Positions 2,056-62,740 of a stretch of 64,000 nt of DNA are shown piece after piece. The DNA is from Parcubacteria group bacterium LiPW_30 (GTDB taxonomy: Bacteria; Patescibacteriota; Minisyncoccia; Phycocordibacterales; VMEP01): the NCBI GenBank assembly GCA_007375595.1, contig VMEP01000001.1, positions 255,883 through 319,882 on the forward strand, given 5' to 3'. The stretch's first letter is position 1; each line of letters opens with the position of its first letter. A program made the position numbers and the translations under genes. The notes under the pieces are model-generated. The model was given only the letters and a program-made list of their open reading frames with translations, ran no database searches and was not told the origin of the DNA.

Positions 2056-2796
2056 ATGGAAAAGTCTAAAACACAAAAGAATAAGGTAGCTACGGCTAAA
2101 GAAAGCGTTAAGAAAGTACGCCCTCTAGTTGATATGAACGCAAAGGTCTACAACCAAGACGGGAAAGATGCTGGCACAGTCGAACTTCCAAAGACTGTTT
2201 TTGATGTTAAGTGGAATGATGATTTGGTTCATCAGGTTATGCTTTCAATGCAGTCTAACGCTCGCGCTGGTACAGCTCACACTAAAAACAGAGGAGATGT
2301 ACGCGGAGGTGGTAAGAAACCTTGGGCACAGAAAGGAACCGGTCGCGCACGACACGGCTCTTCAAGAAGCCCTATTTGGCGTGGTGGTGGTGTGACATTT
2401 GGTCCACGTGCTGAGAAAAACTATGATCGTAAGATAAACAAGAAGATGAAGGTTAAGGCGCTTTACACTGTTTTGTCGAGGAAATTTAGAGATGGTGAAA
2501 TTCTTTTTGTTGATACATTTAAACTAGCTTCTCCAAAAACAAAAGAAGCAAAAGTTATTTTTGAAAAAATAGTAGCAGGAGCAAAGCTCACAAAGACAAC
2601 AATGAAGAAGCGAAATACTGCATATCTTGCACTTGGAGCAAAAGATGTTCAGGTAGAAAAGAGTTTCCGCAATCTTCCAAATCTTGAGACAGGTAATGTT
2701 CGCGATTTGAACCTACTTTCTTTACTTAATCACCGTTACATTATAATTTCCGAACCAAAAGAAAGTATTTCGTTTTTGTCGGCAAAGATTAAATAA
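2056..2796 (+). CDS. rplD: 50S ribosomal protein L4
   Basis: Operon position and L4-like sequence (GTGRARHGS...). Confidence 0.85.
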   Translation: MEKSKTQKNKVATAKESVKKVRPLVDMNAKVYNQDGKDAGTVELPKTVFDVKWNDDLVHQVMLSMQSNARAGTAHTKNRGDVRGGGKKPWAQKGTGRARHGSSRSPIWRGGGVTFGPRAEKNYDRKINKKMKVKALYTVLSRKFRDGEILFVDTFKLASPKTKEAKVIFEKIVAGAKLTKTTMKKRNTAYLALGAKDVQVEKSFRNLPNLETGNVRDLNLLSLLNHRYIIISEPKESISFLSAKIK

Positions 2797-23756: not shown

Positions 23757-24827
23757 TTACTTATCGGCGGGCGTGGTGGCTAGCCTCTTCAGGTTTTGTT
23801 CGGCTTCTTCCGTTTGCCGTTCTGCTTCCCGAATTGCCGCGAGGCGGGCGTATTCAGCCTTCCTTATTTCATACAGCTTAAGGAATTCCGCCGCCTTTGA
23901 GTTTACGAGACAGGCTTCTTCGACGGTAGTCGCTAGGCGAGTTTTACCGACAGGGGATTTGGTTGTGCGGAGTTCTGTTCGCAGAGAGATTTCTTTGAGC
24001 TTTGCCAAACATGGTTCATCAAGCTCTTCGAAACCCCAGAAACTGCTTCGCATACCATAAATATCCCACAGCAGGTCAATCTTGCCGATGGAGGACAGCA
24101 CTTCAAGCATCCAGAGTTTTGCCGAGTTGATGTTTTTGCGCATCTCGGCATTTTGCTTTGCTTTCTCTTCTGGACGGATATGCCACGACTTGATTTCTTC
24201 TCCCTTCCACTTGAAAACAAACGCTGCGAGTCGCAGTAGGAAATTGATGGCCTGTTGTTCGTTGTGGTTGGAGGCCTCTAGTCCAGATAGGTTGCGAACA
24301 GCCCCCCCTTCGACCGCGAAAAAGTTCATGAGGATTGGAAGGATTCGCCCTGAAACAAAGTCAGTGCCCCATGGGTCTCTGCTCCTGTGTTGCACGGAGA
24401 GGGAGTTCTCAATCTCGACCTTGAAGAAGTTCTGGGCGAGTACGTCAAACGCTTTGCGTGCCAACTTCTGGCGAAACCATGCTGGGTTTCCTGGTTGGCG
24501 ATTTCCGTACCTGTCGTAGCCGATGACATATCCTTTGCCTTCATCTGACTCAAGATGCCACTGGGAATAACCACGTTCCCAACCATCAGCAATGGCGAAG
24601 TAGGTTTCCAGGCGATCAGCATGGTCGTACTCTTGTTCGCCATGACTGAAACGCTCAAACCCCACATTGAAACCCTCGTGGAGCAGTCCGGCCAGCTGGT
24701 GCGTGGTGGTGGACTCTTGCCAGCAGGTTCGCCACTCGTTCCAATTACGGGGCGGGCGAATTTCGCGCACCATGAGGGGGTGTGGTAGAGCACTTACGGC
24801 ACTTACGAGATCTTCAATTTGCGACAT
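23757..24827 (-). CDS. Hypothetical 357-aa protein, GC-rich (~52%), coiled-coil C-terminus
   Basis: Start moved to internal Met (MSQIEDL) because the longer ORF overlaps tRNA-Ala; RBS AGAGAGG upstream. Confidence 0.5.
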   Translation of the reverse strand: MSQIEDLVSAVSALPHPLMVREIRPPRNWNEWRTCWQESTTTHQLAGLLHEGFNVGFERFSHGEQEYDHADRLETYFAIADGWERGYSQWHLESDEGKGYVIGYDRYGNRQPGNPAWFRQKLARKAFDVLAQNFFKVEIENSLSVQHRSRDPWGTDFVSGRILPILMNFFAVEGGAVRNLSGLEASNHNEQQAINFLLRLAAFVFKWKGEEIKSWHIRPEEKAKQNAEMRKNINSAKLWMLEVLSSIGKIDLLWDIYGMRSSFWGFEELDEPCLAKLKEISLRTELRTTKSPVGKTRLATTVEEACLVNSKAAEFLKLYEIRKAEYARLAAIREAERQTEEAEQNLKRLATTPADK

Positions 24828-24929
24828 TTTGTTGCCTCTCTTTCTTTCTTGGGTTATGCCCCGTACTGTGACGGGACGAGGTACTGCTATGCCAAATATA
24901 CCTCGGGGCTTGATTAAGTCAAACTGTTG

Positions 24930-25005
24930 TGGTGGACCATACCGGATTCGAACCGGTCGCCTCATCCATGCCATGGATGCGCTCTACCAAATGAGCTAAT
25001 GGCCC
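24930..25005 (-). tRNA. tRNA-Ala (anticodon GGC), CCA encoded
   Basis: Cloverleaf folded by hand: acceptor GGGCCAT/ATGGTCC, D-arm GCTC..GAGC, anticodon loop ATGGCAT, T-loop TTCGAAT. Confidence 0.8.
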
Positions 25006-31228: not shown

Positions 31229-31364
31229 CAAGGGAGATTGACTATAAATAACTTTTTGCCGTCGCAAAAAGTTTTGAGGATTAGTTCGATGTGGGAATTG
31301 GTCACAAATCTTTTGTTGCTACAAAAGTTCGCGACCCCGCCTCGCGCCGTCGCGCTCCGGCTTT

Positions 31365-31447
31365 CAATTCCCCACACAAGACATGCAGATGTCTTGCTCC
31401 ATCTCCACAAACAAAAATGGCTCACCGAAAGGTGAGCTCATTTTTGA
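31365..31447. repeat. Inverted partial copy of the tmRNA 3' end next to a bidirectional terminator hairpin
   Basis: ttcaattcccc...tccatctccacaa is the reverse complement of tmRNA 3' segments tgtggagatgg / ggggaattgaa; terminator ggctcaccgaaaggtgagcc. Confidence 0.5.
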
Positions 31448-31452
31448 TAATT

Positions 31453-31849
31453 GTGGAGATGGGGGGAATTGAACCCCCGTGCAGATGATTTTCAGGCGCG
31501 GGTCTACGAAGCTTAGTTTGTTTTTTTGTTTTCAGCACGAAAGGTTTAAAGCAAACAAAATCCTTTCACACTTATCCTCTATGTTTTTTAGTTAGTATCC
31601 CCGAGAAGTGAAATACGCTTAGTCCGGAAATATAACGCCCGTTCACATCTACCAGACTGCAATGTGACGAACGACCTTAGCTTATTTTATTAAGCGAAAG
31701 CGACGGCGAAGCTGTTTGCCTTAAAATAAGGAGAAACAGATAAGCCCTGTGCAGTTTTGTTTGCACTTATGTTTTGTGACGGTTTAACAAGTCATCACAG
31801 CTTGGCTTGCGCGCGCGAGAATGGTCAGCTGTCTAAGCAAATCATCCCC
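31453..31849 (-). ncRNA. ssrA: tmRNA (ssrA)
   Basis: Minus-strand 5' GGGGATG pairs with 3' CATCTCC; T-arm GGGGGTTCAATTCCCCC; candidate tag reading frame GCA AAC AGC TTC GCC GTC GCT TTC GCT TAA TAA; smpB adjacent. Confidence 0.75.
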
Positions 31850-49230: not shown

Positions 49231-50073
49231 ATGGAAGCGCTTATTGGATTATTTTCTTTTATTTTAGGAACAGTTGTTGGTAGTTTTCTGAATGTTGTAA
49301 GTTTGCGCCACAATACAGGCAGAGGTCTTTCTGGGCGTTCTTTTTGCTTTACTTGTGGAAAAACACTTAGTTGGTACGAACTAATACCCGTCTTTAGTTT
49401 TCTTTTTCAAAAGGGTAGATGTCGGGCATGTGAGAGTGCAATTTCTTGGCAGTATCCAACAGTTGAAGTAATAACTGGTATTTTGTTCTTTGCCCTTTCT
49501 CAAAAATTTTTAGACTTTTTTATGTTAGGTGCAATTGTTGGGGTTGGCAATTTTTATGGAGCGATGATTCTTTCCGCAATGGTTATTTACGCAGTACTTT
49601 TCGGTCTACTTATTGCTATCGGTGTTTATGACCTTAAGCACAAAATAATTCCCAATAAACTCGTTTATATATTTATTTTAGTTGCTTTTATACGTGTTGT
49701 TGGTGTTTCATTCATCAATATTTTTGTTTTAGGTGATACGCTCATTTCTGTTTTGCCGAACCTTTTATCGGGCCCTATTGTAGCTTTACCGCTTTTTCTT
49801 ATCTGGTTTTTATCAAATGGTCGTGCGATGGGGTTTGGGGATGTTAAATTGGCGCTTGGCCTTGGTTGGATGATGTCTTTGTGGGGAGCTTTAGCAGCAC
49901 TTATGATTTCGTTTTGGGTTGGCGGTATTGTTGGTATTATTTTATTGTTTTTGTTTAGTAAAAAAATTACAATGAAGACAGAGGTGCCGTTTGCTCCTTT
50001 CTTAATCTCCGGCACTATTATTGCTTTTTTCTTTAACATCAACATTTTCAGTTTTTTAGAATTTTTTGGCTAA
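49231..50073 (+). CDS. pilD: Prepilin peptidase PilD (A24 family)
   Basis: N-terminal CxxC..CxxC zinc motif, polytopic membrane, conserved Asp residues. Confidence 0.85.
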   Translation: MEALIGLFSFILGTVVGSFLNVVSLRHNTGRGLSGRSFCFTCGKTLSWYELIPVFSFLFQKGRCRACESAISWQYPTVEVITGILFFALSQKFLDFFMLGAIVGVGNFYGAMILSAMVIYAVLFGLLIAIGVYDLKHKIIPNKLVYIFILVAFIRVVGVSFINIFVLGDTLISVLPNLLSGPIVALPLFLIWFLSNGRAMGFGDVKLALGLGWMMSLWGALAALMISFWVGGIVGIILLFLFSKKITMKTEVPFAPFLISGTIIAFFFNINIFSFLEFFG

Positions 50074-58462: not shown

Positions 58463-59572
58463 ATGAAGATTTTTTACCATATACGAAACGCAGTAATTTC
58501 AATTATATTTTTAGGAAGTTTTTTTATTTTACCTTCGCTATCATATGCTGTATCAGGCACATGTTCATATCATGGAGGCGTTAACTGTTCGGCAGGATTT
58601 GATTGGGATGGAAGCGCTATTTGTAACGATGGATGGCGAGATAGTAGTGAACTATATTCTCAAGTCAATGGATGTTCTACTGATAGACGTCCTTTATGCA
58701 CGTCCGAAGAGGTTACCCAGCTTCAGAATAAATATGGTCTTCCTGAAATAAAACAAAGATGGGATAGTATTTCCCAAAAAATAGACGCTATTGCAAATAG
58801 CTCACAGTCATCCACTGACACCAATACTCTTCGGAATAATGCCATAGAATCAAGTAAACTTTATATAGAATTTTTACCCGTACAAGTTGAGTACCAAAAT
58901 GCATTCAACCACGCAATGGAAGATTGTTACGAACTAGGAGCTAAAGAAGAACAACAATTTAAGGATAATTTATACAAGCAACAGCAACAGAATCAAGATA
59001 ATTTGCGGAAGAAAGACCAAGAATTGGAAGATTACTTGTATAAGCTACTTCAATCTCAACAAACACAACCTACATCACAGCCAGCACAAACTAGTGGTGA
59101 TGTATGTGTAGAAAGAGGGGTTGCACATTCTCATTTAAAAAATTCTGCCTGTGAGTGTGATTCGGGGTATTACAACATTAACAATTCTTGTGTCCCATAC
59201 GATAACGCATGCAAGAGTCAGATGGGGTCTAGTGCTTACTATATTGGAAATAATCAATGCTCATGTTCAGCAGGTTATATTATGGAAAATAGTAAATGTG
59301 TTCCGCAGACTCTTCCTGTCAATAACAATAATGCAAATACATCGTCTGTGAATACGACTAACACTGTCTCACCAAAAGAAACTGTATTGCCATATAAACC
59401 TAAAGTAGAAGTTAAGAACCTTCCTGCCAAAACTAGTATTTCAAAATCAAAATCATTAGATAAACCACAAGCAACAACCACAAGCACGACAACTGCTCCA
59501 GTAATTCAAAAAAACACTAAACCAACAATTACTTCTAGAATTGGCTCGTGGCTCAAGAGTTTATTCAGATAA
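58463..59572 (+). CDS. Secreted Cys-repeat protein, paralog of 28059..29042
   Basis: Signal peptide; CECDSGYYNINNSCVP / CSCSAGYIMENSKCVP repeats, Thr/Asn-rich linker, C-terminal SWLKSLFR. Confidence 0.6.
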   Translation: MKIFYHIRNAVISIIFLGSFFILPSLSYAVSGTCSYHGGVNCSAGFDWDGSAICNDGWRDSSELYSQVNGCSTDRRPLCTSEEVTQLQNKYGLPEIKQRWDSISQKIDAIANSSQSSTDTNTLRNNAIESSKLYIEFLPVQVEYQNAFNHAMEDCYELGAKEEQQFKDNLYKQQQQNQDNLRKKDQELEDYLYKLLQSQQTQPTSQPAQTSGDVCVERGVAHSHLKNSACECDSGYYNINNSCVPYDNACKSQMGSSAYYIGNNQCSCSAGYIMENSKCVPQTLPVNNNNANTSSVNTTNTVSPKETVLPYKPKVEVKNLPAKTSISKSKSLDKPQATTTSTTTAPVIQKNTKPTITSRIGSWLKSLFR

Positions 59573-59682
59573 AGTTAGTCAGTTGAAGCTTTGGAATGTA
59601 AATACTCGTATCATTTATTCTTTCAAAACTGGTTCTGGTGTCGTTCAGTAAGTCGCGCAAAGTTAATCCCGTTCGCTTTGAG

Positions 59683-59717
59683 AAAACGCAGAAATAGATT
59701 ACTATTTCTGCGTGTTT
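59683..59717 (+). terminator. Rho-independent terminator
   Basis: aaaacgcagaaatagattactatttctgcgtgttt. Confidence 0.65.
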
Positions 59718-59722
59718 AGTTT

Positions 59723-59795
59723 GCCGTTGTAGCTCAGTTGGTAGAGCACGTCATTGGTAATGACGAGGTCTCCGGTTCAATCCCGGACAACGGCT
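59723..59795 (+). tRNA. tRNA-Thr (anticodon GGT)
   Basis: Acceptor GCCGTTG/CAACGGC, anticodon stem CGTCA/TGACG, loop TTGGTAA, T-loop TTCAATC. Confidence 0.85.
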
Positions 59796-59960
59796 CTGGG
59801 TTGTAACCAGTAAATAATTTTACTGGTGTACGGGATTGAAAGCCGGAGGCAGACGTGCCGAGGCGGGGTAGCGCAACCGGAGGCAGACGTGCCGAGGCGG
59901 GGTAGCGCAAAAATTTAGCAAAATTTTATGCGTGACCAATCCCGGACAACGGCTCTGGGT
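59779..59960. mobile_element. 137-bp MITE-family insert bounded by a 23-bp direct repeat of the tRNA-Thr 3' end
   Basis: aatcccggacaacggctctgggt at 59779-59801 and 59938-59960; insert has tandem 34-bp repeat ccggaggcagacgtgccgaggcggggtagcgcaa x2 plus aaatttagcaaaattttatgcgtgacc. Confidence 0.6.
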
Positions 59961-59972
59961 ATATAGGAATAT

Positions 59973-60048
59973 GCCACCTTAGCTCAGTTGGTAGAGCGAC
60001 CCCTTCGTAAGGGGTAGGTCCCCAGTTCGATTCTGGGAGGTGGCTCCA
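59973..60048 (+). tRNA. tRNA-Thr (anticodon CGT), CCA encoded
   Basis: Acceptor GCCACCT/AGGTGGC, anticodon stem ACCCC/GGGGT, loop TTCGTAA, T-loop TTCGATT. Confidence 0.85.
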
Positions 60049-60050
60049 AA

Positions 60051-60938
60051 ATGAAAGATAAACAGTCTATAGAAAAACGTATAGCAGAAATCGAAGCCCA
60101 AATGGCGGGGGCGGATTTTTGGAATGATAAGGTCACAGCGCAAGCAATATTAAAAGAATTTCAGCAATTAAAAAACGACCTTGAGGGCGCGTCTCGATAC
60201 GACAAGGGAAACGCTGTGATGACTATTTTCTCTGGGGCTGGTGGCGATGATTCTGAAGATTTTTCACGGATGCTTCTTAATATGTATGAAAAGTTTTTTG
60301 CGAAAAAAGGTTGGACCTCGCACGTTGTGCATGAAAATAAAAATGATTTAGGGGGATATCGTAATATCACAATCGAAATTAGTGGGAAAAACGCATATGG
60401 TTTGTTAAAAAATGAATCCGGTGTTCACAGGCTTGTTCGTATTTCTCCTTTTAATGCAAAAAAACTTCGCCACACCTCATTTTCAATGGTTGAAGTTATT
60501 CCAGATTTTGAAGAGGGAGATGAAAGTGATGTTCAGATTGCACCAGAAGACGTAAGGGTTGAATTTGCACGCTCGTCTGGTCCTGGTGGGCAAAACGTCA
60601 ATAAAAGAGAGACCGCAGTAAGAGTGGTGTATTTGGCGACAAATATTGCGGTTCACGCTGAGACGGAGCGTTCTCAAGAGCAGAACCGCGCGCGGGCTAT
60701 GCAGATTTTGCGAGGGAAATTATTTAAGAAAATGGAAGATGAGCGAAAGTCTAGAGAAAGTGGAATGTATGTTTCTAAGACAACTGAGGTTGAATGGGGT
60801 AATCAAATTCGCTCATACGTTTTGCATCCCTATAAAATGGTTAAGGACCACAGAACTGGTGTAGAAACAGGGGACGTGGACGGAGTTTTGGAAGAAGGAA
60901 AATTGGAGGAGTTTATTGAAGCAGAAAAAGGACTCTAG
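60051..60938 (+). CDS. prfB: Peptide chain release factor 2, short form (295 aa) with no programmed-frameshift leader
   Basis: SPF tripeptide (RISPFNAKKLRHTSF) and GGQ (SGPGGQNVNK); ATG 3 nt after the tRNA-Thr CCA end. Confidence 0.85.
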   Translation: MKDKQSIEKRIAEIEAQMAGADFWNDKVTAQAILKEFQQLKNDLEGASRYDKGNAVMTIFSGAGGDDSEDFSRMLLNMYEKFFAKKGWTSHVVHENKNDLGGYRNITIEISGKNAYGLLKNESGVHRLVRISPFNAKKLRHTSFSMVEVIPDFEEGDESDVQIAPEDVRVEFARSSGPGGQNVNKRETAVRVVYLATNIAVHAETERSQEQNRARAMQILRGKLFKKMEDERKSRESGMYVSKTTEVEWGNQIRSYVLHPYKMVKDHRTGVETGDVDGVLEEGKLEEFIEAEKGL

Positions 60939-61089
60939 ATTTGACCACAAACCTACTCTGAGAAATAACATTGAGGTAATTTTTTTGATATAATGCTTTG
61001 ATAATTCTTTTACTGTTTATATTTATGCTAAGGTAGAGTAGGCACGTGGTCACTGTCTTCTAAGACTCGCTCCGCTCGCCAAGAAAACA

Positions 61090-61770
61090 ATGATTTATTT
61101 TGATAAAGTTTCAAAAATATATAAAGACCAATCGGTTGCTCTTGAAGACGTTACAATAACAATCTCCCCCGGGGAATTTGTTTCTATTGTTGGACACTCT
61201 GGCGCTGGGAAGACTACGCTTCTTAAAATGCTCATGGTTGAGGAAAAGCCAACAGCGGGCAAAGTTTTTTTTGAATCGATAGATGTTCAGACACTTCGCG
61301 GGAAGGAAATACCAACATACCGCAGACGAATTGGTGTAGTTTTTCAGGATTTTAAGCTTTTGCCAAACAAAACTGCGTATGAAAATATCGCTTTTGCTAT
61401 GGAGGCTGCTGGGCGTAGCGATGAAGAGATTGCCTCAGATGTCCCTCACGCATTAGAGCTCGTTGATCTTGGTTTAAAGAGGTGGAATTTCCCTCATCAG
61501 CTTTCTGGTGGGGAACGCCAGAGGGTCGCTATTGCGCGTTCCATAATAAATCAACCAGATGTTTTGATTGCTGATGAGCCAACAGGTAATCTCGACCCTA
61601 TAAACACACAAGAAATCATCCAAATCTTGAAAAAAATCAACGACCTCGGCACAACCGTTATTTTAACCACCCATAACAAAGGAGTTATCGATTCTTTGGG
61701 GAAAAGAGTGGTAACAATGGAGAACGGAAGGATTTCTCGAGATGACGAGAAAGGGCGTTACGTGATGTAA
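61090..61770 (+). CDS. ftsE: Cell division ATP-binding protein FtsE
   Basis: ABC ATPase motifs GHSGAGKTT, LSGGERQRVAIARS, ADEPTGNLD. Confidence 0.9.
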   Translation: MIYFDKVSKIYKDQSVALEDVTITISPGEFVSIVGHSGAGKTTLLKMLMVEEKPTAGKVFFESIDVQTLRGKEIPTYRRRIGVVFQDFKLLPNKTAYENIAFAMEAAGRSDEEIASDVPHALELVDLGLKRWNFPHQLSGGERQRVAIARSIINQPDVLIADEPTGNLDPINTQEIIQILKKINDLGTTVILTTHNKGVIDSLGKRVVTMENGRISRDDEKGRYVM

Positions 61771-61819: not shown

Positions 61820-62740
61820 ATGATTTGGACAGACTTGAGACGTATCATAAAAGCCGGCATAACCAACTTTTGGCGCACTGGCACCGTCTCCCTCTCCTCG
61901 GTTTTTATCTTCACGGTAACTCTCTATTTTCTTGGCTCGCTAATTTTTTTGCAAGCAGTTTTGGACTACACACTAACGCAGATTAAAGACCGCGTTGACG
62001 TGAATACATATTTTACAATCGCAACCGATGAATCAAAGATTCTTTCAATAAAGAAAAAATTAGAGGCGCTTCCAGAAGTTGCCTCTGTTAACTACACCTC
62101 TCGAGACGAAGCGCTCGCGCAATTTAAGAAACGACACGAAAATGATTATCTAACCCTTCAAGCGCTTGATGAATTGGGCGATAATCCTCTTGGTGCATCA
62201 CTAAATATTAAAGCAAAAGACCCTTCGCAATATGAATCGGTTGTTAGATTTTTGCAGAGTGATAGTTTGGGCGCTCAGTCTGGCGGTCTTATTGATAAAA
62301 TTAATTACAACCAAAACAAGAGTGTCATAGAGCGACTCTCAGGTATTATTAATGGTTCTAAAAAAATTGGTTTTGGTGTCGCGTTTGCGCTCGCAATACT
62401 TTCTATTTTAATTACCTTCAACACAATCCGTTTAGTCATCTATGTTGCAAGGGAGGAGATTGGCATTATGCAACTTGTTGGGGCAAATGATTCTTATGTG
62501 CGTGGGCCATTTATCGTTGGTGGAATAATGTATGGAATTTTTTCTGCAATTTTTGCTTTGATACTTTTCGTTCCGACAACTATTTGGTTTGGGGAGACAA
62601 CCACAAGTTTCTTTGGTGGAATAAATATTTTTGACTATTACATGTCTAATTTCTTGGAGATAGCTTTCATTTTGCTTTTGTCTGGAGTGCTTTTGGGTGC
62701 GATATCGAGCGTCCTTGCCGTTAGGAAATATTTAAAATAA
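61820..62740 (+). CDS. ftsX: Cell division permease FtsX
   Basis: Topology: TM, periplasmic loop, three C-terminal TM; follows ftsE. Confidence 0.8.
   Translation: MIWTDLRRIIKAGITNFWRTGTVSLSSVFIFTVTLYFLGSLIFLQAVLDYTLTQIKDRVDVNTYFTIATDESKILSIKKKLEALPEVASVNYTSRDEALAQFKKRHENDYLTLQALDELGDNPLGASLNIKAKDPSQYESVVRFLQSDSLGAQSGGLIDKINYNQNKSVIERLSGIINGSKKIGFGVAFALAILSILITFNTIRLVIYVAREEIGIMQLVGANDSYVRGPFIVGGIMYGIFSAIFALILFVPTTIWFGETTTSFFGGINIFDYYMSNFLEIAFILLLSGVLLGAISSVLAVRKYLK

Follow-up and report, generated by a model that had tools for sequence, protein, structure and literature searches.

In Escherichia coli and Bacillus subtilis, prfB, the gene for release factor 2 (RF2), carries a leader open reading frame (ORF0), a CUU-UGA frameshift site and an internal Shine-Dalgarno (SD)-like stimulator. 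The prfB gene described here is located in a 64-kb window, that is, the whole stretch of DNA that was analysed, from the genome of Parcubacteria group bacterium LiPW_30, and its product is 100% identical to the NCBI entry for this organism (680-kb contig). It belongs to the same protein family as its canonical counterparts and shares their SPF and GGQ motifs, but has none of the three regulatory elements. Its start codon follows 2 nt behind the gene for tRNA-Thr(CGT), an arrangement that recurs in many related species. On balance, we lean towards the view that tRNA and prfB are co-transcribed, and that 3' processing of the tRNA would yield a leaderless or nearly leaderless RF2 mRNA.

Such an arrangement has several known relatives. 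In mitochondrial tRNA punctuation, RNase P and RNase Z/ELAC2 cut out tRNAs and so release leaderless mRNAs; here, too, 0-5 nt separate the start codon from the 3' end of the tRNA. In some Paceibacteria, the likeness extends to a CCA/discriminator region that overlaps or touches the AUG, with no SD sequence and no room for a promoter. Unlike in mitochondria, however, the genome is that of a free-standing bacterium, the arrangement concerns little more than a single tRNA, Thr(CGT), instead of the whole genome, and the alternative state in sister species appears to be a leaderless mRNA made by a promoter; moreover, the bacterial arrangement is known here from sequence comparison. A second parallel is provided by the leaderless genes of Actinobacteria, Deinococcus and archaea, in which the -10 box lies ~7 nt upstream of the start codon. 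The same placement is seen in those prfB genes of Paceibacteria that are not abutted by a tRNA, whereas in the window the tRNA sits where the promoter would be. Finally, in the thrU-tyrU-glyT-thrT-tufB operon of E. coli, a tRNA-Thr gene likewise lies directly 5' of a translation-factor gene with which it is probably co-transcribed, but there, some 100 nt lie before tufB, which is equipped with an SD sequence of its own, compared with 2 nt at the prfB gene of the window. In our searches of the literature, we found no description of leaderless expression in the Candidate Phyla Radiation (CPR)/Patescibacteria, of tRNA punctuation in bacteria, or of a short RF2.

The tRNA-Thr(CGT)/prfB junction in Paceibacteria

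The locus is built from the following parts:

59973-60048, + strand: tRNA-Thr(CGT), identified by ARAGORN and Rfam (Rfam score 68 bits)
60035-60043, + strand: SD-like sequence GGGAGGTGG, made up of the 3' sides of T stem and acceptor stem and paired in the tRNA fold
60046-60050, + strand: CCAAA, which would make up the entire 5' leader of prfB after a cut behind the discriminator
60051-60938, + strand: prfB, short-form RF2 of 295 aa, with the start codon ATG at 60051 and the stop codon TAG at 60936-60938

The tRNA has the acceptor stem GCCACCT/AGGTGGC, the discriminator T at 60045 and an encoded CCA at 60046-60048, so that a cut after CCA would leave AA (60049-60050) as the sole leader of prfB. 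This 2-nt spacer has no room for a promoter, a terminator or a ribosome-binding site (RBS). The cloverleaf is the minimum free energy fold of 59973-60110, in which the first ~20 nt of the prfB reading frame are A-rich and unpaired. Differences from the anticodon stem of the tRNA-Thr(CGT) in a close relative (locus L081) are largely compensatory (2/3 pairs). An earlier note on this DNA, made from its letters, had described a short-form RF2 directly behind tRNA-Thr(CGT); with AA between CCA and ATG, the results of ARAGORN, Rfam and the TIGR00020 model, as well as the SPF and GGQ motifs, bear out this description.

One genome per species was scanned, which yielded 80 Paceibacteria loci, 73 of them evaluable. 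Of the 73, 53 have a co-oriented tRNA-Thr(CGT) gene upstream of prfB, which is no more than 10 nt away in 21. Two further loci show abutment: one with tRNA-Thr(GGT), which brings the abutting loci to 22 in all, and one that is cut by a contig edge (L038). The prfB start is abutted by tRNA-Thr(CGT) in ~30% of related species. Classified by how many bases part the discriminator from the first base of the ATG, the junctions, which include the types TCATG and TCCAAAATG, are distributed as follows:

1 base: TC-ATG, CCA not encoded; 11 loci, L038 included
2 bases: TCC-ATG, the A of CCA doubling as the A of ATG; 2 loci
3 bases: TCCA-ATG; 1 locus
5 bases: TCCAAA-ATG; the window and its close relatives
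4-11 bases: various junctions; the remaining loci

Three close relatives (L081, L083 and L084), which are independent assemblies with RF2 proteins 88-89% identical to that of the window, share its junction, GGAGGTGGCTCCA-AA-ATG, without change. The earlier note had named an indel that hides an in-frame upstream extension as the finding that would overturn it, and this identity across assemblies excludes one. Codons 1-20 differ among the close relatives by 7 synonymous and 4 non-synonymous changes; since the junction is kept and the changes in these codons are mostly synonymous, ATG 60051 opens a real coding sequence. Across the family, the start codon is ATG in 75 of ~77 loci and GTG in L009 and L052. 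Placed on a neighbour-joining tree built from RF2, the abutting loci are dispersed over at least 10 clades, so that abutment is either ancestral or has been repeatedly regained. Two more distant short-form loci, L085, where prfB lies within an operon, and L088, where the upstream region is AT-rich and ambiguous, are not informative on the tRNA question.

Abutment is largely a property of this one tRNA: the ATG of a long reading frame is found within 14 nt of the tRNA in 25 of 58 cases for tRNA-Thr(CGT), but in 2 of 107 for other tRNAs (Fisher p = 1e-11). In the window, a search for a second case led to tRNA-Ala (24930-25005, minus strand), which does not abut a gene: behind it comes a ~100-nt leader that contains a purine-rich RBS. 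In four loci (L006 2106, L015 2297, L065 2182 and L066 258), the reading frame abutting tRNA-Thr(CGT) is not prfB. These frames encode a GalU-like nucleotidyltransferase, a VTT/DedA-type membrane protein, DapF and a DUF3419 protein, and their Pfam models begin at the N-terminus. Three of the four have the junction TCATG, whereas L066 has CCAAA-ATG, as in the window. Since genes other than prfB sit at the same junctions, the junction acts as a general expression slot. The prfB genes of these four loci are located further downstream, behind leaderless-type promoters of their own, although the promoter was undetected in L006.

These numbers bear on a rival explanation, according to which abutment is no more than a by-product of genome streamlining. 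RF2 would then be made from the precursor, through SD-independent initiation on its A-rich, unstructured start, and tRNA maturation, through a cut inside prfB and exonucleolytic trimming, would turn each transcript into either a tRNA or an RF2 mRNA. In keeping with this, most genes in the window lack an SD sequence and are preceded by A/T-rich DNA, the beginning of prfB is free of structure, and PNPase and RNase J are reportedly retained in CPR bacteria; likewise, the tRNA of the window encodes its CCA, which in model bacteria accompanies exonucleolytic maturation. The strong bias towards tRNA-Thr(CGT) argues against it, however, as does the persistence of abutment in many clades, also with other genes in the slot, which would be unexpected from random compaction. 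Furthermore, a folded tRNA 1-5 nt 5' of the AUG should impede binding of the 30S subunit, and the CCATG junctions share a base between start codon and CCA, so that only a precise endonucleolytic cut upstream of this A (A76) gives both a repairable tRNA and an intact AUG. All things considered, we regard mere compaction as a rather unlikely explanation.

Possible routes to an RF2 mRNA

The route that we consider somewhat better founded, the release of an RF2 mRNA by tRNA processing, would begin with transcription from a site upstream of the tRNA or tRNAs that runs through into prfB; co-transcription is made very probable by the lack of room between the two for a terminator or promoter. An endonucleolytic cut at the 3' end of the tRNA would then free the tRNA and the prfB mRNA together. 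The likely enzyme would be of the RNase Z type, which would cut after the discriminator and produce the ends 5'-P-CCAAA-AUG in the window, with the AUG 5 nt in, and 5'-P-C-AUG in the commonest junction class, with the AUG 1 nt in. Where no tRNA abuts prfB, a TGnTATAAT promoter would start transcription at or beside the AUG. Co-transcription, cut site, enzyme and leaderless initiation are all things that we infer from the layout of these loci.

What is known of tRNA maturation accords with several of these steps. For CCA-less precursors, cleavage by RNase Z after the discriminator is the canonical bacterial route, and 121 of the 165 tRNA genes in these loci have no encoded CCA, so that most of them need trimming of their 3' trailer and addition of CCA. 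The trailer that RNase Z cuts off carries a 5'-phosphate, a group that in E. coli favours initiation on leaderless mRNAs.

The orthologues that are not abutted by a tRNA show what the alternative state looks like. At 30 of 51 such loci, a -10-like hexamer ends 3-14 nt before the ATG, compared with 10% of control ATGs (Fisher p = 3e-17). Of these 30 boxes, 26 are separated from the ATG by 6-9 nt and 24 carry a TG extension, mostly in the form TGnTATAAT; examples of such extended -10 boxes are TGTTATAAT, TGCTATAAT, TGATATAAT and TGGTATACT. Four loci outside this count, two with GTG starts and two with slightly longer N-termini, have the same promoter placement. The same is true of L086, a 54%-identical short form in which TGCTATACT and 6 nt precede the ATG, and in which a 150-nt insertion parts the gene from tRNA-Thr(CGT). 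In the 20 nt 5' of the ATG of non-abutting prfB genes, a search for SD sequences gave a mean anti-SD duplex energy of -1.0 kcal/mol, with values of -6 kcal/mol or below in 1 of 32. A -10 box 6-9 nt 5' of the start codon, without an SD sequence, is the signature of a leaderless gene. In both arrangements, the 5' end of the prfB mRNA is thus predicted to coincide with the AUG, be it by transcription initiation or by the tRNA end.

Could the abutting genes, too, have promoters of their own? A promoter might reside within the tRNA gene, or the true start might lie downstream, for instance at Met18, with a normal leader, and Met18 is indeed invariant in the family. Yet a -10-like hexamer was found in the 3' end of the tRNA in 0 of 22 abutting loci, and positions -12 to -7 in the window read GGTGGC. 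Met18 is shared with B. subtilis RF2, in which it is an internal residue, and is not preceded by an SD sequence; residues 1-17 are conserved as protein, with mainly synonymous change, and the -10 boxes of the non-abutting orthologues are positioned relative to Met1. We consider independent transcription of either kind very improbable.

Several observations weigh against the release of RF2 mRNA by tRNA processing. CCA blocks RNase Z in B. subtilis and E. coli, and the tRNA of the window encodes CCA; maturation in LiPW_30 may thus proceed by cleavage behind CCA, known from Thermotoga, or by exonucleolytic trimming, and the latter would leave no intact prfB mRNA. The 5-nt leader that would result from a cut after the discriminator exceeds the ideal for leaderless initiation, and ~40% of the non-abutting loci fail the -10 criterion. 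Moreover, a 5'-monophosphate exposes an RNA to RNase J, an enzyme retained in CPR bacteria (PMC12641178). A further such point is the SD-like sequence itself, which is strong and correctly spaced, in a window where a few genes do have GGAGG, so that SD use at this particular locus keeps some probability.

This last observation is at the heart of the mechanism put forward in the earlier note, by which initiation would depend on a sequence within the tRNA. Spelled out, the 30S subunit would bind the unprocessed tRNA-prfB precursor via GGGAGGUGG, 8-10 nt upstream of the AUG, and the same bases would serve both the tRNA and as an RBS. The note had correctly placed this sequence in the 3' strand of the tRNA, as GGGAGGTGG at 60035-60043 spans T stem and acceptor stem. 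Its duplex with the canonical anti-SD has an energy of -14.7 kcal/mol, it is kept in L081 and L084, and an SD-like sequence is present at 13 of 21 abutting junctions. However, retention in close relatives is accounted for by constraint on the tRNA itself, and GGGAGGUGG would simply be the tRNA's own acceptor and T-stem strand. At the other 8 of the 21 junctions (e.g. CCATTGGC, GAAATGGC, CCTTCGGC and CCTTTGGC), there is no such sequence. Nor is the GCCACCT acceptor enriched: 10 of 21 tRNA-Thr(CGT) genes that abut prfB have it, as do 11 of 32 that lie apart from it (Fisher p = 0.4), which points to a property of the tRNA rather than to selection for prfB.

The use of SD sequences in the window as a whole does not help this mechanism either. 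An SD-like sequence precedes 12 of 70 crude gene models, barely above the 10% background at random positions. Most starts have an A/T-rich upstream region, and ~10 models have a -10-like box 5-10 nt before the ATG; several, for instance ftsX at 61820 and a gene at 49231, have promoters of the leaderless type. Likewise, no more than 48% of Parcubacteria were found to possess the anti-SD motif (Tsurumaki et al., 2022, PMC9297842). What prfB lacks is an SD sequence that is both accessible and conserved: the one in the window is paired in the cloverleaf, and among the orthologues, 8 of 21 abutting ones and nearly all of the others, including those with promoters of their own, have no such sequence. 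These comparisons do not support SD recognition as the conserved mode of prfB initiation, nor the dependence on an SD sequence within the tRNA that the earlier note had proposed; we deem this mechanism unlikely.

Beyond the single locus, one may ask whether Paceibacteria practise tRNA punctuation in a general sense, such that excision of tRNA-Thr(CGT) by a 3' endonuclease makes the leaderless end of the RF2 mRNA and, in some lineages, that of GalU, DapF or other mRNAs, and such that RF2 synthesis is tied to transcription and processing of the tRNA, in place of the lost autoregulation, in a lineage that has for the most part abandoned SD-led initiation. We hold this wider proposal only tentatively, our confidence in it falling a little short of even. 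It is a matter of speculation that a position behind the tRNA promoter would tie RF2 output to tRNA synthesis, in the manner of thrT-tufB in E. coli.

Domain 1 and the frameshift site of RF2

The product of the prfB gene is a genuine, shortened RF2, without the helix that ORF0 encodes elsewhere and without the distal portion of domain 1. Its PCRF domain (PF03462) is recognized at 1.7e-40 and its RF-1 domain (PF00472) at 1.9e-35. The best model is TIGR00020 (prfB) with 342.3 bits, while RF1 models reach 209-215 bits. The SPF tripeptide confers the specificity of RF2 for UGA/UAA, in place of which RF1 has PxT. It is found at residues 132-134 (60444-60452) in the context RISPFNAKK, with S132, P133 and F134 invariant in the orthologues, and GGQ, at residues 179-181 (60585-60593), is invariant in 36 orthologues. 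Solved RF2 structures match the protein at E = 1e-76, and domains 2-4 align end to end.

In an alignment with B. subtilis RF2, residues 3-48 correspond to positions 25-70 and residues 49-291 to positions ~117-359. Asp3 is the counterpart of B. subtilis D25, the first residue after the +1 frameshift, just as the earlier note had it when it let the reading frame begin at the post-frameshift region. The same note had domain 1 lacking its first ~60 residues. The shortening is real, but the alignments to B. subtilis and E. coli RF2 distribute it differently: missing are ~22 N-terminal, ORF0-encoded residues and ~50 internal residues of domain 1, which leaves 295 aa compared with ~365. An AlphaFold model (pLDDT, its predicted local distance difference test score, 63 overall and ~80-87 in the N-terminal part), used solely for the two N-terminal helices, has these at residues 2-18 and 27-45, directly followed by domain 2.

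Because parts of domain 1 are missing, the score falls short of the curated TIGR00020 cut-off of 370 bits, with the best matched stretch covering model positions 112-350 of 353, and because of this shortfall, orthologues are labelled 'PCRF domain-containing protein' by NCBI/PGAP. The low score might also be taken as a sign that the short frame is a truncated, decaying prfB or an assembly error. This is refuted by the comparative data and has a negligible probability in our eyes: there are hundreds of orthologues of the same length with invariant SPF and GGQ and intact domains 2-4, the gene differs from that of L081 by 116 synonymous and 27 non-synonymous changes, and independent assemblies have identical junctions. 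PrfH and ArfB, release-factor homologs without domain 1, were considered as well, given that a reduced N-terminal domain is common to them and the RF2 of the window; both identities were rejected, as their models score far under the cut-offs and the RF2 of the window, in contrast to them, has the full set of domains 2-4 together with SPF.

The short form is found throughout the lineage. The top 120 matches are all from Parcubacteria/Paceibacteria and nearly all 293-298 aa long, and the reading frames in 73 loci measure 289-310 aa. When a library clustered at 50% identity was searched, only a handful of its clusters proved to be short forms from end to end; the proteins next in similarity measure 335-370 aa. 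A short RF2 without frameshift is the norm of the class Paceibacteria and not a peculiarity of LiPW_30. The longer entries among the top 120 matches are extensions by gene callers; for example, the 326-aa protein P0008 (L084 55-1035) begins inside tRNA-Thr(CGT), with the peptide AQLAEHLTRNEKVPSSILGGGSK. Read-through of this kind also occurs elsewhere in the window, where the longest reading frame downstream of tRNA-Ala (23757-24974, minus strand) starts within the tRNA.

No ORF0 is present in any frame upstream of 60051, where every frame is occupied by tRNA sequence, and a search of 59700-60200 for CTTTGA gave no match; the reading frame is continuous from ATG 60051. As there is neither a leader reading frame nor a frameshift site, frameshift autoregulation of RF2 cannot operate here. 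The loss of autoregulation that the earlier note had proposed, including its check for an upstream ORF0, is thereby upheld, but as a trait of the whole class rather than of LiPW_30 alone: the frameshift is absent throughout Paceibacteria, so that UGA-dependent autoregulation does not operate in the class. Since prfB genes without a frameshift are already known from a minority of bacteria, as Baranov and colleagues are said to have found in 2002, this loss alone is not novel. As a stop codon, TGA is rare in the window (7 of 70 gene models, with TAA in 47 and TAG in 16).

The surrounding tRNA cluster and the reach of the finding

Upstream and downstream of the tRNA-Thr(CGT)/prfB pair, the window contains the following features:

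59678-59705, + strand: promoter-like TTGAGA-16 nt-TACTAT just 5' of tRNA-Thr(GGT), a consensus match only, with the same sequence in L081
59686-59713, + strand: terminator-like hairpin that closes the upstream gene (58463-59572), conserved in L081
59723-59796, + strand: tRNA-Thr(GGT), without encoded CCA, upstream of tRNA-Thr(CGT)
59802-59936, + strand: inserted mini-element between 24-nt perfect direct repeats of the tRNA-Thr(GGT) 3' end (59778-59801 and 59937-59960)
59960-59965, + strand: TATATA, which may be a weak -10 box, 7 nt before the +1 of tRNA-Thr(CGT); not called by the promoter scan
60965-60994, + strand: promoter-like ATAACA-18 nt-TATAAT with TG extension between prfB and ftsE, from the promoter scan
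61090-61770, + strand: ftsE-like ABC ATPase gene, downstream of prfB in every relative examined
61820-62740, + strand: ftsX, with TGATATAAT ending 9 nt before the ATG, the placement of a leaderless-type promoter

The order prfB-ftsE-ftsX resembles the arrangement in Firmicutes. As for the origin of the transcript, the site at 59678-59705 is a candidate for the start of a tRNA-tRNA-prfB transcript. It overlaps with the terminator-like hairpin (59678-59713 together), 10 nt 5' of tRNA-Thr(GGT), such that its -10 box lies within the hairpin, and both are kept in L081. In L081 and L084, TGTTATGAT or TGTTATAAT is found 19 nt upstream of tRNA-Thr(CGT) in place of the TATATA of the window, and similar boxes lie 5' of the tRNA in other abutting loci. 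The gene at 58463-59572, between tRNA-Asp and tRNA-Thr(GGT), encodes a Cys-rich, Q/N/T-rich low-complexity protein of 369 aa with an N-terminal hydrophobic segment; it has no counterpart at that position in L081 and looks like a lineage-specific insertion into the tRNA cluster.

The mini-element, which holds a 34-nt tandem duplication (59843-59910), parts the two tRNA-Thr genes; in several relatives, no more than a few nt lie between these. It belongs to a family of ~110-170 nt elements at the 3' ends of tRNA-Thr(GGT), the tmRNA gene, tRNA-Asp and tRNA-Thr(CGT), each flanked by a duplicated tRNA 3' end. The copies are:

59778-59960, + strand: window, between the two tRNA-Thr genes
~31300-31395, minus strand: window
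2378-2560 and 2744-2853: L081
1351-1480: L086
upstream of prfB: L064

Their core consists of GGGAWTTGAAAGCCGGAG, a hairpin and GAGGCGGGGT, and TTTGTGACC or TGCGTGACC closes them; covariation is seen in the stems of the hairpin (GGCA..TGCC versus GCGC..GCGC). At a permissive threshold, Rfam detected only the two tRNAs in 59700-60100 and gave no match for the element that lies between. A small mobile element, the relic of an integrated element and a structured RNA are all conceivable identities for it. The second copy in the window follows the tmRNA gene (31451-31849, minus strand; tag peptide ANKTAQGLSVSPYFKANSFAVAFA) and its terminator hairpin.

For the annotation of CPR genomes, these loci call for caution, as gene callers and longest-frame logic run through tRNA genes and PGAP leaves RF2 unnamed. 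For the protein itself, they mean that the essential function of RF2 withstands the loss of most of domain 1, the portion that reaches the L11 stalk. If our reading of the junction is true, it would represent a conserved bacterial case in which the 5' end of an mRNA is made by excision of a tRNA, a strategy that has so far been tied to mitochondria, and it predicts 5'-monophosphate ends at the tRNA-Thr(CGT) discriminator in metatranscriptomes. Its setting would be a huge uncultivated lineage with reduced ribosomes and with weak or absent use of SD sequences.

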